Of a stretch of 64,000 bases of DNA, positions 3,476 to 64,000 are shown in pieces. Positions within the stretch are counted from its first letter, which is position 1; every line of letters begins with the position of its first letter. The DNA is from Elusimicrobiota bacterium. Its GTDB lineage: Bacteria; Elusimicrobiota; Elusimicrobia; UBA1565; UBA9628. The notes below the pieces were generated by a model, which ran no database searches, was not told the origin of the DNA, and was given only the letters and a program-made list of their open reading frames with translations. Position numbers and translations under genes: made by a program. Where the stretch lies: assembly GCA_016207605.1 (NCBI GenBank), contig JACQPJ010000016.1, forward strand, positions 2,452 to 66,451, in the 5' to 3' direction.

Positions 3476-3568
3476 TCGCTCCTCCGCAAATTCGCTGCGC
3501 TTGTTTCCGTCCGGACCCGCGCGCCTTGAGCGCGCGATTTCGGGCGAGGCACTAGGATAACCGAACAT

Positions 3569-4237
3569 TTGGACTTTGTAAAGCGCTTTGTGCGACAATC
3601 GGCTGACGAGGAGTTTCGAGTGCTTTTGAGTGTCATTTTCTTCATCGTCTTGTCCTTCGCCGGAGGCTGCGGCCGCGACCCTTCGGGCGCGGCACAGACG
3701 CGGCTGCGGAAAGCTTTTCAGCGTCTAGGCGGCGCTCCCTCCGCCGGTCCCCGGCTGCCTGATTTCCAGCTCACCGCCGTCGCCGGCGAAAAGACCGCGC
3801 CGCTCTCCCGCGCCGTGCTTCTCGGCCGCCCCTGGGCCGCGAATTTCATCTACACGCGCTGCGCCGGGCCTTGCCCGATGCTGAGCGCGCGCATGGCTTC
3901 GCTTCAGGCGCGCTTGCCCAAATCCGTCGCGCTGATCTCCTTCACCGTGGATCCCGACCACGACTCCCCTGAAATTTTAGCTGGCTACGCTCGACGCTTC
4001 CGTGCCGATCCCAAGCGCTGGCGCTTCGTCACCGGCAAAAAATCAGCGCTCTTAAATCTTTTCCGCGACGGCTTCCACATCGCCGTCGCGGAGAGCGCGA
4101 GCGCGCCGATCGGCGACAACATCGCCCACAGCACGAAGTTCGTCCTTGTCGACGCGGAGGGCCGCCTGCGCGGCTACTACGACGGCGACGATCCTGCGTC
4201 CCTCGACCGCCTCGTCTCCGACGCGTCGTCGCTCTGA
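3569..4237 (+). CDS. SCO1/SenC family thioredoxin-fold copper chaperone, probable lipoprotein. A GTG start at 3620 is an alternative.
   Basis: CAGPC (CxxxC) motif, PDFxLT start of the mature domain, hydrophobic N-terminus with an FAGGC lipobox-like motif. A copy of the CTAG repeat lies in-frame at 3667-3728. Confidence 0.7.
   Translation: MDFVKRFVRQSADEEFRVLLSVIFFIVLSFAGGCGRDPSGAAQTRLRKAFQRLGGAPSAGPRLPDFQLTAVAGEKTAPLSRAVLLGRPWAANFIYTRCAGPCPMLSARMASLQARLPKSVALISFTVDPDHDSPEILAGYARRFRADPKRWRFVTGKKSALLNLFRDGFHIAVAESASAPIGDNIAHSTKFVLVDAEGRLRGYYDGDDPASLDRLVSDASSL
3667..3728 (+). repeat. Copy A of the ~60-bp CTAG-bounded repeat family, in-frame inside the sco1-like CDS; left terminus degenerate (CTGC instead of CTAG).
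   Basis: Aligned by eye to copies at 8840, 8896, 25241 and 52012. Shared core GCGACCCTTCGGGCGCGGCACAGAYGCG...GGAAAGC..TAGCGTCTAG. Confidence 0.7.
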
Positions 4238-4253
4238 CGCACTAACGGATGGT

Positions 4254-4757
4254 TCAGCGCGAGGCCGTCAGGCGCTCGATGACGTCTTTGGCTTGGGGGA
4301 ATTGTCCGAGCAACTCCTGGCGGTCTCCTAGTTCGAAGTCGGCGAAATCGAAGCCAGGAGCGACGGTGCAGCCGACGAAGGAGTAGGCGCTCCCGGCGCC
4401 GGGATAGGCGCCGAACCAACAGCCGGCGGGGACGACGTGCTGCAATTTCTGGCCGGCCTTGAAATCGGGGCCCATCATCACGGTTTTGATGCGTCCCGAG
4501 GGGAATAACTGGATGAGAGTCAGCGGACCGCCTTGGTAGAAATGCCAGACCTCATCCGACTTGATGCGATGCAGGCGGGGCTTGGAGCCTTGCGGAAGGA
4601 GAAAATAGATCGCCGTGGAGTAGCTTCGAGTTCCCTGGAAGTCCTTGGGCAAGGACTCGGCGGAGATAGTTCCCTTGGAGCGGTAGGACTCCTTGAAGTA
4701 GCCCCCCTCGGGATGGGATTGAAGGCCGTAGGCCTTCACTAATTCGGGGACGGTCAT
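4254..4757 (-). CDS. Cupin-fold protein, DUF985-like.
   Basis: 167-aa ORF with a cupin-like beta-rich sequence; ATG at 4755-4757. Confidence 0.55.
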   Translation of the reverse strand: MTVPELVKAYGLQSHPEGGYFKESYRSKGTISAESLPKDFQGTRSYSTAIYFLLPQGSKPRLHRIKSDEVWHFYQGGPLTLIQLFPSGRIKTVMMGPDFKAGQKLQHVVPAGCWFGAYPGAGSAYSFVGCTVAPGFDFADFELGDRQELLGQFPQAKDVIERLTASR

Positions 4758-21316: not shown

Positions 21317-23244
21317 CCGCGCCTGCTCCGGGCCGCGTCCTCCTGGTCGGCATCGAGGGGGCCGCGGAGCGCGAGCTGTCCGCTTTTCTGTCCGGGTTCG
21401 AGCGCGAGCTCGCGTCCGACGCGAGGCGGGCCGCCCTTCGGATCCGCGCGGCGGAATTCGCGGCCGCGGTCTTCGACGCGTCCCGTCTGCCCGCGGCGGA
21501 CCGCGAGGCCCTGGCCGTCCTCCAGCGCGAACGCGGCTTCGTCTTGCTCGGCCTGGAGCCGGACGTCCCTCTGTCTCCCGCCGCGCAGGCGCCCCTGCGC
21601 CGCCTGCCCTGGCCCCTGCCGCTGGGCTTTCTCGACCAGGTCCGGGCCGCCAAGGTCCCGGTCGTCTTCCTGGTCGCGCCGACGCTGTTTTTGACCCACG
21701 GGATCCAGAACGCCCTCCGCCAGGCGGGAGTCCAGTTCTTCCAGACGGACGGGTCGTTGGGGCTCATCGAGATGCTGAGGGAGCAGGTGCGCCTGGCCGA
21801 GGAGGCCGCGGCGTCTCCCGGCCTGCTGGCGCGCCTGACCGGGCGCGCCGGGAGCGGCGACCCCGGCCTGGGCCGCGTCGCGGTGGTCAAGTTTGCCGAG
21901 GGACCGGAGGAGGCCGTGAACTTCGACGCCCGCCTCCGCCAGGCCCTGCCTGGGACCGCGGTCTACCTGGCGACCGCGGTCGATCCCGTCGCGGCCGCGG
22001 CCGCGGCTGCGGCGGCCGGCCGGCCCGCGCTGCTGCCCCGCGAGTGCGTCCCGCGGCTGGCCGAGATCCTCCTCGGGGCCCGCGGCGGCGTCTGCGCGTC
22101 TCCAGGGGGAGAGCGCATCCTCCTGGTGGACAACGACATGCCCACGCTCTCGCGGCTCTCCGAGGCCCTGCTGGCGCTGGGCTACGAGGTGGAAACGGCC
22201 CTGCGCGGCGAGGAGGCCCTGCGCCTGGCCGAGAGCCGTCCCTTCGCCCTCGCCGCCATCGGCGGCTCCGCGCTGGAGACGACCAAGCTCTCCGGGGCCC
22301 ACCTTGCCGTGAGGCTGCGCGAGCGCGACAAGGACCTGCGCATCGTGCTCCTCGTCGATCAGTTTCCGGTCCAGGACGCGCTCAAGGGCGTCAGCCGAGC
22401 CGTGGAGTTGGGCCTCGACGACGCGCTCCTCAAGCCCGTGGACGTCTCGCGTCTGGCCCTGTCCATCCGGCGCGCCTTGGAGCGCCGCTTCCTCCTGCTC
22501 GAGAACGCCCGGCTCCTGCGCGAGGTCCAGGAGTCGGCGCGCCAGCTCGCCCAGGTCAACGGCTTCCAGGCCAAGTTTTTCGCCACCGTCGCCCACGACG
22601 TCAAGAATCCGCTCACCGCCATCTTGGGCTACGCGGAGCTGCTCGGCGCGCGCCTCAAGGACCGCCCCGACCTGCTCGCCTTCGCCTCCTACATCCACAA
22701 GGCCGCCCAGGCCCTCAACCTCCTGGTCTCCGACCTCGTGGACCTGGCCGCCATCGAGTCGGGCAAGCTGCGCGTCGAGCTGGGCCCCCTCGACTTGGCG
22801 CAAGTCGTCTCGGACGTGGCCTCGCGCGTCGCCGTGGCCGCCCAGGCCAAGAAGCTGACGTTCGAGGTCCGCGGGGCGTCCGGGCTGCCGGCCCTGCGCG
22901 GCGACCCCCACCGCATCGGCCAGGTCCTCCAGAACCTCTGCACCAACGCGGTGCAGTACACGCCCGAGGGGGGGGCGGTGTCGATCGAGGCGGGCGTCGC
23001 GGGCGGCCGCGTCCGCGTGGGCGTGCGCGACACCGGCATCGGCATCGCCCCCGAGGACCTGCCGCGCGTCTGGGAGCGCTTCTTTCAGGCCAGGCAGGCC
23101 CAGGACCTGCGCAAGGCGGGCTTCGGCCTGGGACTCAAGATCGCGCGCGAGATCGTGCAGAGGCACGGGGGGGAGATGGAGGTCGAGTCCAATCCTGGGA
23201 AAGGCTCCTTCTTCTACTTCACCCTCCCCGTTCCTCCGGCCTGA
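21313..23244 (+). CDS. Cytoplasmic signal-transduction histidine kinase with N-terminal receiver-like domains (TTG start inferred).
   Basis: H-box FFATVAHDVKNPLTAI and HATPase_c N/G boxes; receiver-like segment lacks the conserved phospho-Asp; TTGA overlap with DUF971. Confidence 0.6.
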   Translation: MTAPAPGRVLLVGIEGAAERELSAFLSGFERELASDARRAALRIRAAEFAAAVFDASRLPAADREALAVLQRERGFVLLGLEPDVPLSPAAQAPLRRLPWPLPLGFLDQVRAAKVPVVFLVAPTLFLTHGIQNALRQAGVQFFQTDGSLGLIEMLREQVRLAEEAAASPGLLARLTGRAGSGDPGLGRVAVVKFAEGPEEAVNFDARLRQALPGTAVYLATAVDPVAAAAAAAAAGRPALLPRECVPRLAEILLGARGGVCASPGGERILLVDNDMPTLSRLSEALLALGYEVETALRGEEALRLAESRPFALAAIGGSALETTKLSGAHLAVRLRERDKDLRIVLLVDQFPVQDALKGVSRAVELGLDDALLKPVDVSRLALSIRRALERRFLLLENARLLREVQESARQLAQVNGFQAKFFATVAHDVKNPLTAILGYAELLGARLKDRPDLLAFASYIHKAAQALNLLVSDLVDLAAIESGKLRVELGPLDLAQVVSDVASRVAVAAQAKKLTFEVRGASGLPALRGDPHRIGQVLQNLCTNAVQYTPEGGAVSIEAGVAGGRVRVGVRDTGIGIAPEDLPRVWERFFQARQAQDLRKAGFGLGLKIAREIVQRHGGEMEVESNPGKGSFFYFTLPVPPA

Positions 23245-32313: not shown

Positions 32314-33531
32314 TCAGCGCTTCCGGCGGGGCTTGCGGGCGGGGGCCGGCGAGACGCCGGCGGCGATCTCGGGCGGCAGGTCGCCGGCCTCGATCTGCGG
32401 TCCGGCGGCCATGATGAGGGCGCGCTCGACGGCGTGCTCGAGCTCGCGCACGTTGCCGGGCCAGGCGTAGGCGCCGAGGGCCCTGACCGCGTCCGGGGAG
32501 AACTGGGAGCCCGGCGAGCCCGTCCGCACGCGGGCCTTCTTGAGGAAGGACTCGGCCAGCGGAAGCACGTCCTCGATCCGCTCGCGCAGGGGGGGGATCT
32601 CGATGGGGAACACCTTGAGGCGGTAGTAGAGGTCCTCCCGGAACTTGCCCTCGGCCACGAGCTTGCGCAGGTCCCGGTTGGAGGCGGCGACCACGCGCGC
32701 CGAGACCTTGATGGGGTGGTTGTCGCCGACGCGGCGGATCTCTCCCTCCTGCAGCGCGCGCAGGAGCTTGACCTGCAGGCCCGGCGTCGTCTCGGTCACC
32801 TCGTCGAGGAAGAGGGTGCCGCCGGAGGCCTCCTCGAAGAGGCCGCGCTTGTTGCGGTCGGCGCCCGTGAAGGAGCCCTTGACGTGTCCGAAGAGTTCGC
32901 TTTCCAGCAGGCCCTCGGGCAGGGCGCCGCAGTTGAGGGCGACGAAGGAGCCGTCGCGCCGGGGGGAGTTCTCGTGGATGGCGCGGGCGACGAGCTCCTT
33001 GCCCGTGCCGGACTCGCCGGTCACGAGCACGGTGGCGTCCGTCGCCGCGACCTTGGCCACCAGCGCGAGGACGCGGCGCATGGCCGCGCTGGCCGAGACG
33101 ATGCGGGAGAACCCCAGCCCTTCCTTCAGCTCGGCGCGCAGGCGCCGGACCTCGCCCAGCAAGTCCCGGTGCTCGATGGACTTGCGCAGGGCCAGGGCCA
33201 GCTCCTCGGGCTCCACCGGCTTGGTCAGGTAGTCGAAGGCGCCGGCCTTCATCGCGGCGACCGCGGTGTCGATGGAGCCGTGCCCGGTGATGACGATCAC
33301 CCCGGTCTCGGGCTGGCTGGCGCGCGCCGCGGCCAGCACCTGCAGGCCGTCGCCGGCGCCCAGGCGCAGGTCGGTGACGACCGCGTCGAAGATCTCCTTT
33401 TCCACGCGCGCGGCCGCGGCCGCGGCCCGCGTCTCCGACTCGACCAGGAAGCCGCGCCGCTTCAGCTCGAGGGAGAACAGCGCCGCCTGCGCGGGGTCGT
33501 CTTCGACCAGCAGGATCCGCTTTTCATCCAT
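32314..33531 (-). CDS. Sigma-54-dependent response regulator (receiver plus AAA+ sigma-54 activation domain), apparently lacking the C-terminal DNA-binding HTH.
   Basis: Receiver Asp pocket, GESGTGKE Walker A, GAFTGA-like (GSFTGA) motif, ESELFGH; ORF ends about 30 aa after the AAA domain. Confidence 0.8.
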   Translation of the reverse strand: MDEKRILLVEDDPAQAALFSLELKRRGFLVESETRAAAAAARVEKEIFDAVVTDLRLGAGDGLQVLAAARASQPETGVIVITGHGSIDTAVAAMKAGAFDYLTKPVEPEELALALRKSIEHRDLLGEVRRLRAELKEGLGFSRIVSASAAMRRVLALVAKVAATDATVLVTGESGTGKELVARAIHENSPRRDGSFVALNCGALPEGLLESELFGHVKGSFTGADRNKRGLFEEASGGTLFLDEVTETTPGLQVKLLRALQEGEIRRVGDNHPIKVSARVVAASNRDLRKLVAEGKFREDLYYRLKVFPIEIPPLRERIEDVLPLAESFLKKARVRTGSPGSQFSPDAVRALGAYAWPGNVRELEHAVERALIMAAGPQIEAGDLPPEIAAGVSPAPARKPRRKR

Positions 33532-33537
33532 GAAGGC

Positions 33538-34629
33538 TCACCCGGGGGCCGTCGGCAGCAGCAGGGTGAAGGCGGCGCCGCGGCCCGGCTCGCTCTCCAG
33601 TTCGATGCGCCCGCCGTGCGCGCGCGCGATGCGCTCGGCGATGGCCAGGCCCAGGCCGGTGCCGTGCGACTTGGTCGTCTTGAAGGGCTGGAAGATCTCC
33701 TCGCGCGCGGCGGCCGGCACGCCCGGCCCGTCATCCTGGACGCGAAGGAACGCGAAGCCCTCCCGGCGCCCGGTTGCGATGCGCACCAGGCCGCGTCCCT
33801 CGACGGCCTGCGCCGCGTTGAGGGCGATGTTCCAGGCGACCTGGCGAATCTGGTCCGGGTCGAAGCGGAAGGGCTCCAGCTCCGCGTCGAAGGCGGTCTC
33901 CAGCCGGGGCCGCGCGCCGCTGCCGGCGGCCAGGATGCGCGCGATCTCCCCCGCCAGGGCGTTGAGGTCGGCGCGCTCGAGCTTGAGGGGGCGCGGCCTG
34001 GCGTAGGCCAGGAAGTTGGTCAGGGTCTCGTTGAGGCGCGAGCTCTCGTCGCGGAGGATCTTGAGGACCAGGGCGCGGTCTTCCTCCGTCAGGGTTTCTC
34101 CGGCGAGCTGGCGCGCGGCCATGACGATGGAGCCGAGCGGGTTGCGGATTTCGTGCGCGACCACGGCCGCCATCTGGCCGAGTTGGGCCAGCGCCTCGGA
34201 CTGCGCGACGCGCTCCTGGAGCCGGCGCAGCTCGCCGACGTCGACCGCGTTGGAGATGTAGCCGACGATCTCGCCGCGTTCGTCGCGCACGGCCGTGATC
34301 GTGAGGACGATCGGGATTTCCCGCCCGTCCTTGGCGCGGTTGACCAGCTCGCCGCGCCAGAAGCCGACGGCGGGGTCGAGAATCCGCCGCCACATCCCCG
34401 CGTAGATCTCGGGGGTGGTGTGGCGCGAGCGCAGGATGCGCGGGTTGCGTCCCACGGCCTCGGCGCGGGTCCAGCCGTAGTGGCGCGTGAACGCCTCGTT
34501 GACGTCCAGGATCGTTCCCTCGCGATCGCAAAAAAACATGACGTCGTTGGAGTTCTTGAAGGCCTGGTAAAGCGTGAGAGCCAGCTTGTGCTCGCCGCTG
34601 CCGGGGCCGGGTTCTCGCGTTCTGGTCAT
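33538..34629 (-). CDS. PAS-domain sensor histidine kinase (NtrB-like), cytoplasmic.
   Basis: PAS region, H-box VAHEIRNPL, HATPase_c; 6-nt gap to the downstream response regulator. Confidence 0.75.
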   Translation of the reverse strand: MTRTREPGPGSGEHKLALTLYQAFKNSNDVMFFCDREGTILDVNEAFTRHYGWTRAEAVGRNPRILRSRHTTPEIYAGMWRRILDPAVGFWRGELVNRAKDGREIPIVLTITAVRDERGEIVGYISNAVDVGELRRLQERVAQSEALAQLGQMAAVVAHEIRNPLGSIVMAARQLAGETLTEEDRALVLKILRDESSRLNETLTNFLAYARPRPLKLERADLNALAGEIARILAAGSGARPRLETAFDAELEPFRFDPDQIRQVAWNIALNAAQAVEGRGLVRIATGRREGFAFLRVQDDGPGVPAAAREEIFQPFKTTKSHGTGLGLAIAERIARAHGGRIELESEPGRGAAFTLLLPTAPG

Positions 34630-55622: not shown

Positions 55623-56535
55623 GGGCTCGTTCCTGCTCGCAGAGCGCGAGCACGGCCATGCGGATCAAGACGCCGTTGGCGACTTGGTCGAGGATCACGG
55701 AGCGCGGCCCGTCGGCGACCTCGGAGGAGATCTCCACGCCGCGGTTGATGGGCCCCGGATGCAGCACCAGGCCGTCGGGCTTGAGCAGGGCGAGCCTCTC
55801 GGGCGTGAGCTGGTAGGCGGCGGCGTAGTCGGCCAGGGAGGGCACGAAGCCCTGCTCCATGCGCTCGAGCTGGAGGCGCAGGACGTTGACCGCGTTGGCG
55901 CCGCGCAGGGCCTTCTCGACGTCGTGCTCGATACGCGCGCCCAGGGCCGCGAATTCCCGCGGGACCAGCGGCGTGGGCCCGCAGAACACGACAGAGGCCC
56001 CCAGCGTCTTGAGCGCGAAGAGGTTGGAGCGCGCCACGCGGCTGTGGCGTATGTCGCCCAGGATCACCACGCGTTTGCCTTTCAGCGAGCCCCAGCGCTC
56101 GCGCAGGGTCATGACATCGAGAAGCGCTTGGGTGGGATGCTCGTGCCAGCCGTCGCCGGCGTTGACTACGCAGGCCTTCAGCCGCGGCGCCAAATCCTCC
56201 AGCACGCCCGAGCGGTCGTAGCGGAGGATGAAGTGCGTCACCCCGATGGCCTGCAGGTTGAGCGCCGTGTCGAGCAAGGTCTCGCCCTTCGCGAGCGACG
56301 AGCCCGCCGCCGAGAAGCTCAAAACCTCCGCGCCCAGTCGCCGCGCGGCCATCTCGAAGGACGAACGGGTGCGCGTGGACGGCTCGGAGAAGAGGAAGGC
56401 CGCGGTGCGCCCGGCAAGGAGCGGCTTGGGGGGAGAGTCCTTGAAAGCCGCCGCCGCATCGAGAAGGCTCTCGATCTCGTCTGCCTCCAGCCCTTCCAGG
56501 CCGAGCAGGTCCTTGCGGCCCCAGTCTTTCGTCAC
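55615..56535 (-). CDS. pyrB: Aspartate carbamoyltransferase catalytic subunit (GTG start).
   Basis: STRTR and HPTQ motifs of the ATCase/OTCase family. Confidence 0.85.
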   Translation of the reverse strand: MTKDWGRKDLLGLEGLEADEIESLLDAAAAFKDSPPKPLLAGRTAAFLFSEPSTRTRSSFEMAARRLGAEVLSFSAAGSSLAKGETLLDTALNLQAIGVTHFILRYDRSGVLEDLAPRLKACVVNAGDGWHEHPTQALLDVMTLRERWGSLKGKRVVILGDIRHSRVARSNLFALKTLGASVVFCGPTPLVPREFAALGARIEHDVEKALRGANAVNVLRLQLERMEQGFVPSLADYAAAYQLTPERLALLKPDGLVLHPGPINRGVEISSEVADGPRSVILDQVANGVLIRMAVLALCEQERARG

Positions 56536-56616
56536 TCGCGGTTCGGTTCGGCGGAAGGAACCCCGCCTTACGGATTAAACTATTTTTGCCGCCCGCCCGT
56601 CAAAACGAACCGGCCG

Positions 56617-57018
56617 TCACCATTCCTCCACCCGCAAGCCGGGGACGCGCTTGAATTCGCGCACGTTGCGCGTGATGAGCGCGTGCCCCAGCGCCACGCA
56701 AGAGGCCGCCAGCCATAGGTCGTGGGCCCCGATGGGCGAGCCTTTGGCCTCCAACTCCGCCCAGAGCTGGGCGTGCGTCCTCGCCACGGCCAGCTCGATC
56801 GGCAAAACGGGGAAACGCTCCAAGATTCCTTCCACGAAGGCGGCCCGTTGCGCGCGCATCTTGGCGTCCTTGGCCCGCCAAACGCCGTGCAGAAGCTCGC
56901 TGGCGGTGACGACGGAGATGAAGAACTCATCATCCTTTCGCCCCTCGACCTTGGCGGCGACATTCAGAAGGCCGCGTTCCGCGGCGATCAGGGCGTTCGA
57001 GTCGATCAGGACCCCCAA
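56617..57018 (-). CDS. vapC: PIN-domain toxin (VapC).
   Basis: MGVLIDSNALIAAERG PIN N-terminus and acidic residues; 13-nt overlap with the antitoxin gene. Confidence 0.7.
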   Translation of the reverse strand: MGVLIDSNALIAAERGLLNVAAKVEGRKDDEFFISVVTASELLHGVWRAKDAKMRAQRAAFVEGILERFPVLPIELAVARTHAQLWAELEAKGSPIGAHDLWLAASCVALGHALITRNVREFKRVPGLRVEEW

Positions 57019-57278
57019 GGATCCCTCGCGGGGCGGCGATTCAAGGATTTTTTCGCCGCCGTCACGTCGCGCTCGAAATCACGCGCATCCCCCGGCTCCA
57101 TGCGCGGCAGCGTCTTGAGGAGCGCGGGCAACTCCCCCAGCCGCCGCCCCCGCGGCGCGGGATGGAGTTCCGCGAGGACTTTCTTCCCCCGAACGAGCAG
57201 GAAGCTTTCCCCCGCGTAGGAGACGCGGTTCAGATAATCCGAAAAATGCCTGGCCATTTCCGTCACCGTCACGTTCAT
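57006..57278 (-). CDS. Phd/YefM-family antitoxin.
   Basis: MNVTVTEMARHFSDYLNRV YefM-like N-terminus. Confidence 0.6.
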   Translation of the reverse strand: MNVTVTEMARHFSDYLNRVSYAGESFLLVRGKKVLAELHPAPRGRRLGELPALLKTLPRMEPGDARDFERDVTAAKKSLNRRPARDPWGS

Positions 57279-57566
57279 AATGCCTCCTGCCCAAACGTTT
57301 AACTGTTTATCAGTTTATCAGATAATATGATAAAAATCAATGACACAAGTAAGGAGTAAGGAATCCTGCTTGATAAATTTGTCGCGTTAGAATACCATCG
57401 GGTGAAGCCAAAAGTTGGAGCCGCACTCCATAGCCGGGGTGGTTGCAAGCGTCAAGATAGCAGGGAGAGATTCGTGTTTGAACTATTGGGCGGCATTCGG
57501 AAAGCGCACTGGAATCGCCAATGCTCTGCTGCCGTACAACGCGGGCAGGAAAATTATCTTGAATAC

Positions 57567-58133
57567 ATGAACAAATGGGCCCGAGAGAAGAATGCCGTGC
57601 CTCCTCGATCAGGCCCGGTAACGATGGATCAGTTTGTCGCCCTTGCTTCCATTTATTCTGCAAGTATCGGCTGGTTTGAGGCATTCAAAACTCCAGAGTT
57701 CGATGGGGTCTTTATTCATGTTCCTCCTGATGCCGCGTTTCGAAAGAGAGCGCTAGAATTCAGCATGTACCATCACTTTTTGCATTCGCTCATCTGGACC
57801 TCATTTGGTATCTCAGAGAAAGCGCTTTCACAGGTTGCCGAGAACTTTGGAATCGCGATGATGCTCGCAGGCTTCATCAAGGAGAAGTCTGAGTTCGATG
57901 GATTCCAAAAGCTGTTTGCCAACCGCATGTCCCAATATGGGGAGTGCCTGAAGAACCAGAAGGCGGCGGTCACACCGGCTTTATTGATGGCTGAAATTCT
58001 TGCCGGCCAACTGTTTGATGACGGAGACTCCCTTAGAAAATCCAGATTCAAAATAGCCCTGTCTTCAAACCTTGCCGCCTCGGTGGCCGACCTAAAAACA
58101 ATGTATTCGCGTTTCCAACTGAAAGCAGCATAG
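57567..58133 (+). CDS. Orphan hypothetical protein, low GC; the ORF may instead start at 57402.
   Basis: GC around 48% against about 70% background; no recognisable motif. Confidence 0.3.
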   Translation: MNKWAREKNAVPPRSGPVTMDQFVALASIYSASIGWFEAFKTPEFDGVFIHVPPDAAFRKRALEFSMYHHFLHSLIWTSFGISEKALSQVAENFGIAMMLAGFIKEKSEFDGFQKLFANRMSQYGECLKNQKAAVTPALLMAEILAGQLFDDGDSLRKSRFKIALSSNLAASVADLKTMYSRFQLKAA

Positions 58134-58196
58134 CCCCGGGCAAGAAAATCTACGGGGGAAGGGTTTGGCGTGATCTCGCGTGCTGGATGTCGAGAC

Positions 58197-60122
58197 CTAC
58201 GTATGAGCGGACGCCAGGGCGCGGGCCAACGCTGAGACGAAAGACGTCGCGTTGGGCCAGCGCGCCGAAGGCTCCGGCTCCAGCGCGCGGCCGATCACGG
58301 CGTCCACCTGGGGGTTGAGCCCCGGCACCTGCTCCGAGAGGGGCCGGTACAGCTTCTGCGCCTTCATCATCATTCCGCCGCCGCTGACCGGGAAGGGTGG
58401 GCGGCCGCAGAGCATTTCGTAGACGCAGCAGCCCAGCGCATAGATGTCGGTCGCGGGGCGCGCCAACTGGCCCGCCTCCTGCTCCGGCGCCATATAGGCG
58501 GGCGTGCCGGAAATCTCGAGCTTGGACATGGTCGAGAGCGTCTCCGCCACGCGACGAGCGATGCCGAAGTCCATTACCTTGGAGTTGTTGTTTTTATCCA
58601 GCATGATGTTGGCCGGCTTCAAGTCCTGGTGCACGATCCCTTTCAAATGCGCGTAATCCAAGGCCAGCGCCACCTGACGTGAAATCGCCACCGTTTCCTC
58701 CGGCGTCAGGGGGCTCCGGCCCAGCCTCTCGTGCAGGGTCTCCCCATCGACGCGCTCGAACACCAGGAACAGTCCCCCGTCCTCGTGGACCGAGTGGATC
58801 TCCACGATGTTGGGATGATGAAGCGAGGCCACCATGCGCGCCTCCTTCAGGAACCGCTGGCGCTCCCGTGGGTTGTTGGCCACCTCGTCCCTCAGCTTCT
58901 TGATGGCCACCGTCCGCTCCAGGGCCAGGTCCCTGGCCTCGTAGACCACGCCCATGCCGCCCGTCCCCAGCGTGCGCACGAGCTGGAAGCCGCCGGGCAT
59001 GGCGTCGGGCCGCGGCGCGGGCTGCAGCTCGTCGAGACGCACCATCCGCCGCGAGATGGACGTAAACCCCGTTTTTTTAAGCGCCGCGAACGAGAAGAAC
59101 AGCAGGGCCGTGCCCACCGCCGCCAGCCACACGAGGCTCGGCCGCGGCTTGGACTTGGGCCGCAGGGGCGAGGACTCGGCGAGCTGCTTTTGGTGATAAA
59201 GCTCCGCAAACCTGGGGTTGAATTCGGCCGCTTTCTTAAGGGCAGCCAGGGCCTCGCCGCGGCGCTTCTCGGGCACGTTCTCCCGGCTGTAGAGCCACAG
59301 GTACTTGCTGCCCTTGAGGGTCTCGTCGCCTGACTCCAGCAGCTCGCGGTGTTCCTGCCTGCGCACCGTGTCTACCGCCTTGCCGAGGTGGCCCATGACG
59401 TGGAAGCGGTCGAAGACGATCTTCTCGACGGCGTCCGGCACGCGCGCCAGTGTCGCCTGGATGGAGGGCTCCCACATATCCATCGCCACCGCCTCGATTC
59501 CCGCCAACTGCTCCTTGCTCAGCCCGGCGTAGTAGCCGTCGAGACTCTCCTGCTTGCGGTCCTCGCTGATGTGCTCGACCGTGCCCTCCTCCAAATCGCA
59601 GACCAGCGTCAGGTACCGGTGCCCTTTGGCTGCCGCCTTCTCATCAACGCCGATGTGGCGCACCACTTTGCGCGCCTTGCGGTCTCGCCCGCGCCGGACC
59701 GCCCGCTGCATCAAGCCCCACGCCTCGTCCCAGCTGATCCGCAGGATTCTCGTCGCCCCGCTTACGTCGCACCGGCTGAGCACGCCGATGGCCAGCCGCT
59801 CGAACAGCAGCGTGAACCGTGACCGTGGCTCCGCCCACGGTACCTTGACCTGCACGACGCCGTGCTCGTCGCACTCCACGCGTGGGATGCGTGCGTGCAG
59901 GTAGGTCTGGAACTGGCAGCTATCCAAGTGCCGCCACGTGCGCTCCTCGGCGTGGTCGTAGAGCGCCAGCTTCGCGGCGCACTGCGGGCATGTCCACCCG
60001 GCGTCTTGCGGCTGCTCGGCCCACACGTCCACGCGCTGTGTCTTCACGTCCAGGTTCACGCGAGCCACCGCCCACGGCGACTGCAATCCGAGCAGGTACT
60101 GGTAGAGCGCGGTGTCTTGCAT
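58197..60122 (-). pseudogene. In-frame chimera: a 3'-truncated ISL3-family transposase (about aa 1-318) fused to a TM helix plus a complete Ser/Thr protein kinase catalytic domain (about aa 325-641).
   Basis: ISL3 transposase motifs (MQDTALYQYLLGL...WRHLD...HIGVDEKA...FDRFHV...) followed by a TM segment and Hanks kinase motifs (GxGxxG, VAIK, HQDLKPAN, DFG, APE). Confidence 0.6.
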
Positions 60123-60200
60123 GGCGGCCTCCTTGCGAGGCCACCATTTTATCCTACCCGACGGTCACCCACGCCAAACCCGGAAGCGCTAGTTTCTTTT
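59170..60200 (-). mobile_element. ISL3-family insertion sequence remnant (transposase 5' portion plus upstream end region); ends not defined.
   Basis: Transposase homology; the flanking AT-rich sequence at 60180-60310 marks a compositional boundary. Confidence 0.45.
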
Positions 60201-60319
60201 TAGACAGTTCTTCTCAAATCTACTAGACGGGATAGAAATGAAAAGTTTTCTGCATATAAAATACTCTCTTATGAAAATTAACACTTTACATTAAAGAAAC
60301 AATATGTCAGCATCCAGCC

Positions 60320-60466
60320 ATGGCGGCGCAGTTCTCCGTCCTGGTCGTTGAAGACGACGCCCTCGCCCAGAAGATCATGACGGCGCATCTGGCGCCGCAC
60401 CAGGCGGATTTCGCCGATGACGCCGCGGCCGCGCGCCGCAAGCTCGCCTCGGGCCGCTACGACTGA
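60320..60466 (+). pseudogene. Response-regulator receiver domain N-terminal fragment (48 aa).
   Basis: The translation has the VLVVEDD acidic-pocket start of a receiver domain and then stops. Confidence 0.3.
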
Positions 60467-60780
60467 TGGGCCCTAATAACCCGAGTGGGTCAAGAGCTTT
60501 TCAAGGAACACTTCCTGCGCGCCGGGGACGGCTCCGACCAGTAGTGGGCGCATCTCTGCGGGATTTTAACCGCCGCTCGCGGCCTTCATGCCCAGCGCGG
60601 AGGCGGTGGCGCGGGACATCCTTCACGGCGCCGCCGCCGCCCAGCCGGCGCTCTCCGATGACGGGCCTCCACCTGGAAATGCAGCGCGTCCATAGCATCA
60701 GGCTCTCCCGCCGGTCCATCGCCCAATACAGGAAGGACATGACGCGAGACAAGAACACCATGACGATCGGAGATGCAAAG

Positions 60781-61566
60781 ATGAAGACAATCCATGCCGG
60801 GAACGCGGCCAGGAGCCTCGCGGAGCAAGCAGGCTACAGCGGCACCGTCGAGTACATATACACCGCGGACCATCCGGAGGTCCTGCGCTGGACCAGCCAC
60901 TTTGAGGGGCTGGCGGCGCGGGAGGGGGTGTTCGAGGCTTTCGAGGCGGCCTGCCCCAGGTCTTGGCGCCGCGCCACGGTCGTCAGCGCGCTCTGGCACC
61001 GATTTTCCTCATTCATGCCATGGTTCCTCTGCCAGGCTGCAGCGATGGTCTCCACGAACGAGAAGCGCCACTACGTGATCCAGACGGCCTTCGAGGAGCT
61101 TGGCATGCGCGACGCGCGCGAGATCCACTGCGACATGTTTTGGAACGCCGCCGCACAGGCAGGCGTAAGTGAGAAGGATCGGGCCGAGGTCCTGGCGGAC
61201 GTCCCGGCCGCTACGGCCCTGGCCTCCCTTCGGGGGGCGCTTCTTTCCTACGGCACGGACGAGGAGGTGCTCGGCATCCTGCTCGGCCTCGAGATCCCGG
61301 CGCGGGAGAACATCGAGACGGTGTTCCGGTCGCTGGCCCACGACGACGGGACGGCGGTTGCGCTCGACGCTCACCGCTTCTTCATCTTCCACCGCCAGAT
61401 CGAGATCGAGCACGTGCGGCTGACGGTGGCTAACTTCGTGAGGTACTGCCGGACCGAGGAACAGAGGCGCCGCTTCCAGCGGGGCTTCTCCAATGGGCTC
61501 GGGTTCTGGAGCCGCTTCTGGAACACCGCCTCCGACCTGGTGGGAGTCCCCGCCCGCGCCTCATGA
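60781..61566 (+). CDS. Putative heme-oxygenase-like (CADD/PqqC/TenA-fold) iron-dependent redox enzyme; alternative starts at 60739 and 60760.
   Basis: Helical roughly 260-aa protein with Glu/His-containing motifs (AFEELGMRDAREIH, HRFFIFHRQIEIEH) suggestive of di-iron ligand sets; GGAGA RBS before 60781. Confidence 0.4.
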   Translation: MKTIHAGNAARSLAEQAGYSGTVEYIYTADHPEVLRWTSHFEGLAAREGVFEAFEAACPRSWRRATVVSALWHRFSSFMPWFLCQAAAMVSTNEKRHYVIQTAFEELGMRDAREIHCDMFWNAAAQAGVSEKDRAEVLADVPAATALASLRGALLSYGTDEEVLGILLGLEIPARENIETVFRSLAHDDGTAVALDAHRFFIFHRQIEIEHVRLTVANFVRYCRTEEQRRRFQRGFSNGLGFWSRFWNTASDLVGVPARAS

Positions 61567-62777
61567 ACGACGCCGCCGAGTTCCGCAAGCTCATCGCGGC
61601 CTCCTTCGTCTCGCAGACGGGGAGCCATTTCCTGACCCTGGCTCTCGCTGCCTTCGTGTTGCTGAGTACCGGATCAGCCGTTCAATCAGCGCTGGTCTTC
61701 GTGCTCTCCTACCTCCCGTCCATCCTGGCGGCGCCCAGGCTGGGCCACTGGGTGGATTGCCACGTCTCCAAGCGCCTGATCGCGACCAACGAGCTGATCT
61801 CAATTGCATCCACGGTGCTGTGCGGTCTGTGCATCGAGTTCCGGCTCCCTATGGCTGCCCTGTGCGCCGTGCTCGCTCTCCGTTCCATCCTGCTTTTTGT
61901 TGGCCGCGCCGCCGGAACCAAATGGCTCAAGCTGATCACGTCCCCGGCCCTGCAGACGGGGCGGATCAAGCTCTTCTATCTGGCTTTCTTCCTGTCTACC
62001 GCCGTCTCCGGCCTGCTGGCGGCCCTCGTGCTCAAGCATGCCTCCATCCGCATGGTCGTGGGCATCGACGTGGCGAGCTATCTGCTCGGGATCGCGCTGT
62101 ACATGACGCTCGCCGCGCCGCCCACCGAGCCGGCCGGCCAGGCTCCAGCGCCCGAAGGCGAGGCCCTGCAATCGCTGCGCGAGACCCTGGACGCGATCTT
62201 CGCGATACCCGTGGTTCGGACTTCCTTCCTGGCGGTCTGCCTGTCGCAGGCGGTCTTCCAAGGGGCGTACTCAGCTTTTGTCTCCTACCTGCCGATCTCG
62301 GTCTTCAAGGTGGGCGTGGGCGGGGTGGGCTCCTTCCAGCTCGCGGCCTCGATCGGCATCATTGGAGGCTTTCTCATCAACTGGCTGGCGGCCGGCATCC
62401 TCGCGGAGATTGACCCACAGGTCCCGAGAAAGGCTCTCTGGATCTCCGGCCTGGCGGCGGCGTTCCTCATCTGCGCCGTGTCCATCCCCGCGGTGAGGGT
62501 GAGCCTCGGCTCGTTCCTTCTCTTGAACCTGGCGTACGAATGCGTGTGGCTTCACCATAACTCCGAGTTCTTCCGCGCAAGCCCCAAGCGCCACGCGGCA
62601 CGCTACCAGTTCATACTTTCGTCGTGTGCCGCCTTCCTGATGTCGGCCATGACTCTGGCCTACTCCGCCGCGGTGCAATGGCTGGGTCCCTCCTCTGGGA
62701 CCCTTTCGGTCCTCATGGGTGGAGTGCTGGTCACAGCGTACGCGGGGATGGCGCCATCCTGGAGGCAGGGCTCATGA
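61563..62777 (+). CDS. MFS transporter (12 TM).
   Basis: Hydrophobic profile with 12 predicted helices; ATGA overlaps at both ends. Confidence 0.7.
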   Translation: MNDAAEFRKLIAASFVSQTGSHFLTLALAAFVLLSTGSAVQSALVFVLSYLPSILAAPRLGHWVDCHVSKRLIATNELISIASTVLCGLCIEFRLPMAALCAVLALRSILLFVGRAAGTKWLKLITSPALQTGRIKLFYLAFFLSTAVSGLLAALVLKHASIRMVVGIDVASYLLGIALYMTLAAPPTEPAGQAPAPEGEALQSLRETLDAIFAIPVVRTSFLAVCLSQAVFQGAYSAFVSYLPISVFKVGVGGVGSFQLAASIGIIGGFLINWLAAGILAEIDPQVPRKALWISGLAAAFLICAVSIPAVRVSLGSFLLLNLAYECVWLHHNSEFFRASPKRHAARYQFILSSCAAFLMSAMTLAYSAAVQWLGPSSGTLSVLMGGVLVTAYAGMAPSWRQGS

Positions 62778-64000
62778 CGAGATCCGTGGTGTTCCTGGAA
62801 CCGAAGGGCACGATCCTCGAAGTCGTGCGCGCCGCCAAGCGCCGGGGCTTCCATGTCGCCGCGCTCCGCTCGGACCCGGCGCTCCTGGACGGCGCGCCGG
62901 AGCCGTACGCCTCGGCCGTTCCCCTGATCGACGAGATCATTCCCATCCAGGGCTGGGACGCCGAGTCCGCCGTCCTCGCCGCGTGCGAGGCGGTCCACGC
63001 CCGCGCGCCCATCACCGGCCTCTACGCGGGGATGGACCCATGCGCGTCCATCCTGGCGCGTCTGCGCCGCAGGTTCAGCCTGCCGGCCCCAGACCCAGAG
63101 GCCATCGCGCTGGTGCTCAACAAGTTCGCGCTGAGGCGGCGTCTCGTGGAGCTGGGCCTGAGCCGCCTCAAGAACGCCCACAGCTCCGAGGCGGAAGGCT
63201 GGACCTCATGGCCCTTTCGGGGTGCCGCCTATTTCAAGCCGGTCCACGGCTTCTTCAGCGCCTATGTGAGCCGTTGCGAGAACTTGGCCGACTTCCGCGC
63301 AGCGCGGGATCGCTGGCGGACCGGCAACGGCACCGATCCGGCTTGGCTCAAGGACTATCTACACTCGCTCAACGAATACCACCTCGAGGAGGCCTTCGAC
63401 GGGGAGCTTCTGTCCGTGGAGGCCATAGCGAGCGGAGGCCGCTACGAGCCGTTGGGCCTGCTCTCGCGCATCCTCTACTCGCGGGACCCCGTGGTCGAGA
63501 TGGGCTCCTGCTTCCCCTATCCCCATCCGCTCAGCGGCAAGATCATCGACCTGGCGCGGCGCGCCCACGCGGCGCTCGGCCTCCACGACGGGCCGACCCA
63601 TACGGAAATGATCGTCAGTCCTGCCGGGGAGGTCGAGATCATAGACCTCAACCCCAGGTTCGTTGGCGCTGACGTCCTCCAGTCGATCAACAATGCCTTC
63701 GGCGTCCGGGTGGAGGAAGCACTGCTCGACTATGCCATCGGGAAGCCGGCCCGGGTCGCGCCGGAGGATCGTCGCTTCTCGTGCCTGCAATACTTCCTGC
63801 CTCCCCGGGTACCGGTCCTGGAGACGGTGGACTTCCCCGAGGTCCCCGAGGTCAAGTTCCGCGCCACCTTTATCAAGCCGGGTACCCCAATATCGAGCAA
63901 CGACCGCCAGATCGACTATCTTGGCTGCTACCTGACCGTAATGCCGGAGTTCGAGGCCGCCCTTAGCCGCTCGCGCGAGCTGCGCGCGGCGGTCATGATC
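62774..64000 (+). CDS. ATP-grasp domain protein (amino-acid ligase type), 3' end beyond the window.
   Basis: Translated by hand from 62774 with no stop to the end of the window; HTEMI and IIDLNPRF motifs of the ATP-grasp fold. Confidence 0.6.
   Translation, partial: MTRSVVFLEPKGTILEVVRAAKRRGFHVAALRSDPALLDGAPEPYASAVPLIDEIIPIQGWDAESAVLAACEAVHARAPITGLYAGMDPCASILARLRRRFSLPAPDPEAIALVLNKFALRRRLVELGLSRLKNAHSSEAEGWTSWPFRGAAYFKPVHGFFSAYVSRCENLADFRAARDRWRTGNGTDPAWLKDYLHSLNEYHLEEAFDGELLSVEAIASGGRYEPLGLLSRILYSRDPVVEMGSCFPYPHPLSGKIIDLARRAHAALGLHDGPTHTEMIVSPAGEVEIIDLNPRFVGADVLQSINNAFGVRVEEALLDYAIGKPARVAPEDRRFSCLQYFLPPRVPVLETVDFPEVPEVKFRATFIKPGTPISSNDRQIDYLGCYLTVMPEFEAALSRSRELRAAVMI

Follow-up and report, generated by a model that had tools for sequence, protein, structure and literature searches.

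A candidate mobile make-export-sense cassette, flanked by insertion sequences and bereft of its activator, in an Elusimicrobiota genome

What do three coupled genes beside the remains of a mobile element make, and is their product a weapon, a signal or neither? The question is raised by the right-hand end of a 64,000-nucleotide (nt) stretch of contig JACQPJ010000016.1 (Elusimicrobiota bacterium, assembly GCA_016207605.1, positions 2,452 to 66,451 of the forward strand), hereafter the window. The genes encode a predicted heme-oxygenase-like di-iron oxidase (HDO), a major facilitator superfamily (MFS) transporter and an ATP-grasp ligase, and an earlier note, made from the letters of the window alone, had proposed that they form a small, horizontally acquired biosynthetic cluster. 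The answer to which we give somewhat better than an even chance is that the locus is an insertion sequence (IS)-flanked, activator-less copy of a mobile make-export-sense cassette, with the trio as its chemistry-and-export core. The cassette itself probably makes and secretes an oxidized amino acid or dipeptide.

Direct reading of the sequence agrees with the architecture described in the earlier note, and places the ATGA overlaps that join the + strand trio at 61563-61566 and 62774-62777. The third open reading frame (ORF) does run past the end of the window; Logan contig L001 (run SRR12113385), which is 100% identical to the window across 3546 nt, completes the gene, whose last 8 codons fall outside the window. 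All three family assignments withstand hidden Markov model (HMM) searches, with scores above the curated Pfam cut-offs (Haem_oxygenas_2, 44.7 bits against 28.9; MFS_1, 54.1 against 33.4; ATP-grasp_4, 40.8 against 27), and about 13 independent loci of other organisms repeat this gene order, far above chance. A GGAG is better spaced ahead of a second possible HDO start, at 60782, from which the product would be 261 amino acids (aa) long. The cluster was also said to be lower in GC than the core genes; it is (0.659, compared with 0.702 for positions 1-56500), though the gap is modest and the lowest other 3.26-kb window stands at 0.611. Ratios of non-synonymous to synonymous substitution (dN/dS) for the three genes against their relatives are 0.15-0.30, with dS above 1 and thus saturated, so that they carry long-term information only.

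Membership of the first protein in the HDO superfamily, offered tentatively at the outset, is upheld by its residues and by its predicted fold. HDOs are defined by a seven-helix fold with a ligand set of three His and three carboxylates (2026 review, PMC13108848). Two homolog alignments, of 25 and of 101 sequences, show no variation at E120, H130, E185, H218, E222 and H225 of the window protein, and the resulting pattern (E-x9-H ... E ... H-x3-E-x2-H) lines up with the motifs of BesC in a profile alignment. An AlphaFold2 model built on the 101-sequence alignment (pLDDT 91.2) is an all-helical bundle that corresponds to the seven-helix heme-oxygenase-like architecture, and the six putative ligands sit on modelled helices 107-120, 130-140, 174-185 and 213-236. 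The reservation that the protein might lack a conserved metal-ligand set on a heme-oxygenase fold is thus answered by invariant ligands on what is predicted to be that fold. PF14518 (Haem_oxygenas_2) is its sole Pfam match, no other family appearing even at E up to 1. The sole sequence relative in both NCBIfam and the PDB is BesC, at a weak 18.2 bits (E 0.0013; PDB profile E 0.002); orthology to BesC was considered and rejected, as NF042919 has a cut-off of 500 bits. Identity to BesC (4-chloro-allylglycine synthase, PDB 7TWA), HrmI, PolF and CADD, all HDOs that act on amino acids, is only 11-17%. Scanned exhaustively with HMMER, 1.84 billion cluster representatives yielded only 127 relatives at E up to 1e-3, and plasmid records held no match to the HDO. 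As far as sequence can tell, the clade is small, sharply separated from known HDOs and without a characterized member, and we predict that the protein is a di-iron oxidase of this small and distinct subfamily. An N-terminal extension of 60-70 aa (IRHxISxGLxF...NL) is conserved on the HDOs of related loci L003, L014, L015, L020 and L021, and is missing from those of the window and of L038.

The second gene is an MFS transporter, as had been read; its MFS_1 match spans profile positions 2-342 of 347, a hydropathy scan returns about 11-12 hydrophobic segments, and among NCBIfam models TIGR00900 (H+ antiporter, DHA3-type) matches best, with 57.9 bits, under its cut-off of 319.6. Equally, the third protein is an ATP-grasp enzyme of the L-amino-acid-ligase type, L-amino-acid ligases being its sole nearest solved structures: all six PDB sequence matches are of this kind, including 3VOT (BL00235; 1e-9) and BacD (2e-7). 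ATP-grasp_3 is matched at 26.9 bits (cut-off 23.2), while LAL_C2 (15.8; cut-off 29.4) and ATPgrasp_N (20.9; cut-off 27) both fall below theirs, and PF18603 matches, taken from precomputed annotation, occur on several homologs. K117, K155, E288, N293 and R295 are invariant among 45 ligase homologs, giving an ATP-grasp domain with its ATP/Mg residues. The family is very uniform in length at 417 aa, and the ligases of Streptomyces drop steeply to about 25% identity. A ligase homolog (P0159) is also encoded by Tolypothrix carrinoi HA7290-LM1, a cultured organism. A paralogue, 35% identical, lies in a non-ribosomal peptide synthetase (NRPS) cluster on a Massilia plasmid; this locus was rejected as a further copy of the cassette, only the ligase being matched.

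Past the ligase, L001 contains the first 90 aa of a signal-peptide protein. A 684-aa kinase (P0211), found by way of a relative's kinase, lies on the same 73,260-nt NCBI contig as the HDO (P0001), and the Logan contig that holds it in the same run (L040) was stitched to L001 through a 30-nt overlap. In the stitched sequence, a binding protein (Peripla_BP_6, about 393 aa) comes first, then the histidine kinase, both intact, and then a DUF772 transposase; hence the context past 64000, on which the idea of a biosynthetic cluster partly hung, is not one of primary metabolism. Five consecutive genes (HDO, MFS, ligase, binding protein and kinase; about 6.5 kb) are free of stops and frameshifts. The proposed unit of three genes therefore stands as regards the trio, and falls as regards its extent, with the binding protein and kinase lying beyond 64000 and regulator debris at 60320-60741.

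These additional genes are readily understood in the light of related loci (numbered here with the prefix L), of which 12 came from species-representative genomes, 15 from metagenomes and several from exact-protein look-up, all scored with purpose-built HMMs. Loci of type A share the order sigma54 response regulator (not in all), HDO, MFS, ligase, short-chain dehydrogenase/reductase (SDR; not in all), LivJ-like periplasmic binding protein and histidine kinase, and the genes mostly overlap. This arrangement occurs in L003, L005, L006, L007, L009, L010, L014, L015, L020, L021, L027 and L029, whereas L002 has the trio only. The MFS gene directly follows the HDO gene in every type A locus; the regulator is found in 11 of the 13 (L006 and L002 being without it), the SDR in 10, and the binding protein and kinase in 11-12. 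L014 and L021 are without the SDR, as is the window genome. In loci of type B, the HDO is paired with a permease that replaces both MFS and ligase, and which is nearest to PRK11021 (Met/branched-chain-amino-acid transporter; 177-187 bits, cut-off 284). SDR, binding protein and kinase are also carried by type B loci L004, L008 and L024, and not by L011, L018, L034, L035 and L036; in the cultured Legionella antarctica (L018), a DdaF-like ATP-grasp gene is divergent to the HDO and permease genes. Hosts, by the labels of their metagenome-assembled genomes (MAGs), include Deltaproteobacteria, Oligoflexales, Bdellovibrionota, Polynucleobacter, Blastocatellia, a cyanobacterium and Elusimicrobia. The cassette is rare, and is spreading horizontally.

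The sensory genes of these relatives are of a recognizable kind. Cassette binding proteins carry signal peptides, and their sole relatives in the PDB and NCBIfam bind Leu, Ile or Val. The kinase is predicted to have a periplasmic domain of about 130 aa between two transmembrane segments, and it stands closest to AtoS and ZraS, kinases that partner sigma54 activators; NCBIfam matches of the cassette regulator include LuxO (174 bits, under the cut-off of 800). Sites of sigma54 type, defined as at least 10 of 12 positions of TGGCAY-N5-TTGCW and compared with the expectation from the background rate in the same loci, stand at the operon head in 9 of 16 type A loci, about 7 independent ones among them, where about 0.65 would be expected (P ~5e-6). 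Putative signal-synthesis genes are linked to a candidate receptor kinase and regulator in the relatives; in the window genome, binding protein and kinase are present and the regulator is a stub.

A second set of such sites faces away from the cassette. A conserved small Zn-ribbon protein (CPxC...CxxCDWxS) with no family assignment is, in the loci that have it, always encoded by the first gene of the operon divergent to the cassette, and sigma54-type sites face this gene in 5 of 10 loci (0.22 expected, P ~4e-6), namely L015, L020, L025, L027 and L028, at 50-70 nt before the gene start. Individual sigma54-type sites include L015 5885-5900 (- strand) and L007 8494-8509. Behind the Zn-ribbon gene, seven loci (L007, L009, L010, L015, L025, L027 and L029) carry genes for F-type type IV secretion, those near the cassette encoding TraU, a T2SSE-family ATPase, TraF, TraL, TraE, TraK, and TrbI or TraC; the 64-kb window holds no secretion genes. 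Resolvase, RadC and DUF3560 genes border the cassette of L021. Over 14 kb comprising secretion genes and cassette, L009, from a MAG labelled Bdellovibrionaceae, and L010, from Polynucleobacter, are 94.6% identical at the nucleotide level, which indicates either very recent transfer or a mis-binned mobile element. Horizontal acquisition, which had been suggested from composition and position, thus gains support from IS elements on both flanks of the window locus, spread over phyla, and, in relatives, the linked conjugation genes. Just downstream of the cassette in L015 (15828-17809) there is a pair resembling a diversity-generating retroelement (RVT_1 reverse transcriptase and bAvd), on the same contig as TraC/TrbC genes.

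The left flank of the window cluster is a mobile-element scar, as had been described, made up of a truncated ISL3 transposase (Table 1) and of two stretches poor in GC, 57300-58200 (0.486) and 60123-60320 (0.42). The ORF that holds the transposase has Zn_ribbon_ISL3, HTH_Tnp_ISL3 and DDE_Tnp_ISL3 (profile 1-153 of 240) matches at residues 43-313 and a complete Pkinase domain at residues 380-622, with a transmembrane segment between the two parts and all in frame; the fusion probably arose by IS insertion into a kinase gene followed by deletion. The AT-rich spacer next to it resembles the stretch that precedes the regulator gene in relatives, and has a single sigma70-like consensus match (60233-60262), which is not evidence of function. 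By tblastn, the regulator stub corresponds to residues 21-67 of the L014 regulator (470 aa in length; 62% identity, E 2e-10), and it stops at GRYD, short of the phospho-acceptor Asp. Behind it, the sigma54-like pseudogene is broken by two frameshifts and two in-frame stops and has lost about 440 nt internally; its pieces correspond, in three different frames, to residues 72-106 (53% identity), 254-296 (33%) and 296-321 (46%) of the L014 protein, and the start codon of the HDO marks the end of the RpoN-box piece (SRRSIAQYRK). Stub and sigma54-like fragment meet exactly at one Asp codon (60461-60463); this suggests that one deletion took place in an ancestor where the regulator came first, followed by the sigma54-like gene and the HDO. 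L038, the closest relative (HDO 74% identical), has its regulator intact and adjoining the HDO, and its DNA similarity to the window is confined to positions from about 60815 on. The ORF is open from 60466, and the debris was therefore considered as an N-terminal extension of the HDO; this was rejected, with similarity starting at about 60815-60829 and the upstream pieces lying in three frames with stops.

Table 1. Positions of the cassette genes and of the features to their left in the window, and of the divergent Zn-ribbon gene in related loci
Feature	Position	Strand	Basis and remarks
Chimeric ORF, 641 aa (left boundary)	58197..60122	-	Truncated ISL3 transposase and Ser/Thr protein kinase domain
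AT-rich spacer, GC 0.42	60123..60319	.	Composition; upstream of regulator stub
Stub of sigma54-dependent response regulator	60320..60466	+	tblastn; 47 codons of receiver domain, then TGA
Sigma54-like protein pseudogene	60461..60741	+	tblastn against L014 sigma54-like protein (Sigma54_DBD)
HDO, 275 aa	60739-61566	+	ORF list; identical to NCBI protein P0001, MAG labelled Elusimicrobia
MFS transporter, 404 aa, probably exporter	61563-62777	+	MFS_1; ATG overlaps HDO stop (ATGA)
ATP-grasp enzyme, L-amino-acid-ligase type, 417 aa in full	62774 to beyond 64000	+	ATG overlaps MFS stop (ATGA)
Zn-ribbon gene, L015	5585-5881		Counterparts in L009, L010, L025, L027, L028 and L029
Zn-ribbon gene, L020	1166-1459		
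Zn-ribbon gene, L007	7618-7824		

What the sequences show directly are the identities and conserved order of the genes, the enrichment of sigma54-like sites, the linkage to secretion genes and IS elements, and the decay of the regulator genes. From these elements we infer a substrate, a product, a direction of transport, a sensed ligand and regulatory targets, as follows. The di-iron HDO would use O2 to oxidize an aliphatic amino acid, or else a dipeptide, at the side chain; existence of type B loci that have no ligase implies that it could act on a free amino acid. The ATP-grasp ligase would then join the oxidized residue to a second amino acid, and the MFS pump would export the product. In intact relatives, the secreted LivJ-like binding protein and the membrane kinase may sense a ligand resembling an amino acid, for which the product itself is the most economical candidate, whereupon the kinase would phosphorylate the sigma54-dependent activator, and the activator would fire sigma54 promoters at the cassette head, at the divergent Zn-ribbon and type IV secretion operon, or at both. 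With the activator reduced to a stub of 47 aa and the sigma54-like gene to a pseudogene, the loop is open in the window genome, and its five intact genes may be expressed from another promoter, or be heading for decay.

Several observations weigh against this scheme. No sigma54-type site precedes the window HDO even at 7 of 12 matches, save one poor site, and together with the dead activator this means that the circuit cannot work here as proposed. A strong site is likewise not found at the cassette head in the closely related L014 and L021. The type B loci L004, L008 and L024 do without a ligase altogether, and L002 and L018 hold HDO, transporter and ligase without the sensor, so that the chemistry does not depend on the circuit. 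The binding protein, for its part, could have as ligand not the product but an ordinary amino acid or an outside cue. Finally, recent relaxation of selection on the window genes is possible because dS is saturated.

The most serious competing explanation of what the cassette does is the antimetabolite role put forward in the earlier note. In that case the HDO would yield a toxic non-proteinogenic amino acid, the ligase would cap it with a carrier residue as a 'Trojan-horse' dipeptide, the MFS protein would provide both export and self-resistance, and the two-component system would only tune production to nutrient or amino-acid status. Such a weapon is plausible, and we would put it at appreciably less than even odds. 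It draws on the confirmed make-up of HDO, L-amino-acid ligase and exporter, for which BacD/BacE of bacilysin offer a parallel, on the 35%-identical ligase within the Massilia NRPS cluster, and on L002 and L018, where the chemistry genes occur without a sensor; in mangotoxin biosynthesis, moreover, an HDO acts on a ligase-made tripeptide (PMC13185094). Set against these points are translational coupling of the sensor genes within the same operon in most relatives, the repeated divergent placement of the cassette against secretion genes with sigma54-type sites, and the lack, in the loci compared, of any separate gene for immunity or for bypass of the target; this context fits a signalling role at least as well. 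The antimetabolite explanation is nevertheless compatible with the make-export-sense cassette, because an antibiotic can also autoinduce its own synthesis, as nisin does through NisRK. Sensors that sit beside the transport and enzyme genes they control are also typical of substrate-induced pathways, and LivJ-type binding proteins normally serve uptake. One could accordingly envisage a catabolic or detoxifying module, in which an external amino-acid-like compound is sensed, imported by the MFS protein or permease, and transformed by HDO, SDR and ligase. This we consider improbable, given that the binding protein has no ABC permease or ATPase genes beside it, that an ATP-consuming, amide-forming ligase is anabolic, that both transporter types are nearest to families named antiporters or exporters, and that a route toward central metabolism, by way of deaminase, dehydrogenase or lyase genes, is not seen.

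Two further explanations concern the window copy and its first protein. The locus may be a non-functional relic, silenced by loss of the activator and sigma54-like gene and by the flanking IS elements, with lesions yet to accumulate in the remaining genes. The stub, the shattered sigma54-like gene, the want of a sigma54-type site before the HDO, the IS elements on both flanks and a kinase left without its partner would all fit, while the five intact genes (about 6.5 kb) keep every invariant catalytic residue, the dN/dS ratios are 0.15-0.30 (with dS saturated), the upstream AT-rich region has its sigma70-like match, and a second sigma54 activator is encoded elsewhere in the window (~32365-33531). 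On balance we think it a minority prospect, on a par with the antimetabolite cluster, and like that explanation it is compatible with descent from a make-export-sense cassette. Very remote, in our judgement, is the suggestion that the first protein counts among the cofactor or primary-metabolism enzymes of its fold (PqqC, TenA thiaminase, heme oxygenase or CADD-type pABA (para-aminobenzoate) synthase) and its adjacency to the other genes incidental. With PF14518 the only Pfam match at E up to 1, there is no PqqC or TENA_THI-4 match; pqq, thi or folate genes are not seen nearby; the full 3His/3Glu set of di-metal members is invariant; and strict co-occurrence with a transporter and a ligase across phyla means that the adjacency is not incidental. 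On the Pfam results and this context, the PqqC, TenA, heme oxygenase and pABA synthase identities were rejected.

Placing the make-export-sense cassette among known systems further sharpens what is particular to it. Bacilysin and other L-amino-acid-ligase pathways are dipeptide antimetabolite systems; the cassette ligase has BL00235 and BacD as its nearest solved structures and, as with BacD/BacE, has an MFS gene adjoining it. The similarity is distant (E 1e-9 to 2e-7; NCBIfam BacD equivalog 30.7 bits against a cut-off of 850), and in place of prephenate-derived warhead genes the cassette has the HDO. HDO and ATP-grasp ligase clusters are a recognized category: 1447 HDOs, spread over at least 25 cluster types, have been reported in the vicinity of ATP-grasp ligases, and the characterized example is mangotoxin, whose mbo operon in Pseudomonas syringae combines the HDO MboA with MboC and MboD, both L-amino-acid ligases (Badding et al., 2026, PMC13185094). 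The window trio resembles mbo in combining an HDO with a free-standing ATP-grasp ligase in a small operon, the mbo product being an oxidized short peptide. It differs in having neither an MboB-type reductase nor an MboE-type deiminase, and one ligase in place of two, and the cassette of relatives differs further by its binding protein, kinase, sigma54 activator and linkage to secretion genes. A PDB profile search with the HDO returned BesC only and no match to MboA, whose structure is possibly not in the set searched, and the HDO family motifs did not appear in the accessible part of the sequence supplement to the mangotoxin paper. Literature on HDOs with ATP-grasp enzymes, histidine kinases, sigma54 or quorum sensing, and on sigma54 with conjugation, yielded the mangotoxin paper and HDO reviews, with no account of this cassette found.

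For the sensory half, the nearest analogy may be the LuxP/LuxQ to LuxO relay of Vibrio quorum sensing, where a periplasmic binding protein and a kinase feed a sigma54-dependent regulator, as the binding protein and membrane kinase of the relatives appear to do. The binding protein of the cassette is, however, of LivJ type (Peripla_BP_6) and not of ribose-binding-protein type, and putative synthase genes share the operon of the receptor; neither a LuxU-like relay nor a hybrid kinase was detected, and the regulator is dead in the window. Conjugation is under signal control in TraI/TraR of Ti plasmids and in Rap-Phr of ICEBs1, with which the seven related loci that set a putative synthesis-and-sensing module beside type IV secretion genes on mobile DNA might be compared. 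The protein families are wholly different from TraI/TraR and Rap-Phr, and control of secretion is here suggested by sigma54-like sites alone.

If the make-export-sense cassette is what we believe it to be, then the boldest extension of that idea is a novel class of cell-to-cell signal: an HDO-oxidized amino acid or dipeptide, exported by the MFS protein, sensed by binding protein and kinase, and relayed to a sigma54 activator that, on conjugative elements, switches on the Zn-ribbon and F-type secretion operon, with the window copy 'deaf' while still making and binding the signal. We regard this extension as speculative and rather unlikely; were it true, it would mean donor-density or mating control of DNA transfer across several phyla, and with it a new chemical class for bacterial signalling and a new mode of conjugation control. 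The sensor genes and the recurrent neighbourhood of secretion genes do suggest that the product may regulate the behaviour of mobile elements, and the interest of the locus, so far as it can be read from sequence, lies mainly in this possible tie between a new class of signal and mobile-element transfer. Amino-acid oxidations by HDOs include N-oxygenation, C-C cleavage, and the formation of alkynes, nitriles and azetidines, and to our knowledge every newly characterized HDO clade has so far given new chemistry. The fixed partnership of HDO, ligase and exporter offers a compact target of 3-4 genes for heterologous expression, and the window locus would serve as a clear example of an IS-captured mobile cassette that has retained its enzymes and lost its activator.

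Some smaller observations concern the surroundings of the dead regulator. The debris in the window runs in the order regulator stub, sigma54-like fragment, HDO, whereas in L014 (3359-5792) the order is sigma54-like gene, regulator, HDO. At the cassette head of L014, the 342-aa sigma54-like protein (3359-4387) consists of the C-terminal DNA-binding domain and RpoN box only, hinting, from sequence, at a cassette-specific sigma54 paralogue; such a cassette-associated gene was seen in L014 and as the window pseudogene only. L001, an independent Logan assembly from the same run, begins at window position 60455, at the junction of stub and sigma54-like fragment, and this break could be a branch in the assembly graph, that is, strain variants with another upstream region. 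Around 56500-61000, a search for terminal or att-like repeats gave only short matches at chance level. A 243-aa ORF without a Pfam match (57402-58133, + strand) lies inside the low-GC stretch at 57300-58200 (GC 0.486, about 0.70 for the genome) and is likely to be foreign cargo. The second, intact sigma54-dependent response regulator (~32365-33531, - strand) is 34-41% identical to the cassette regulators and is adjoined by a histidine-kinase-like ORF (region ~32365-34176, - strand), with another kinase-like match at 22504-23229 (+ strand). Between the pyrB/pyrC core genes and the mobile scar (56617-57278, - strand), a PIN-domain toxin of 133 aa overlaps an upstream 90-aa ORF without a Pfam match, and the two are probably a VapBC-type toxin-antitoxin pair.

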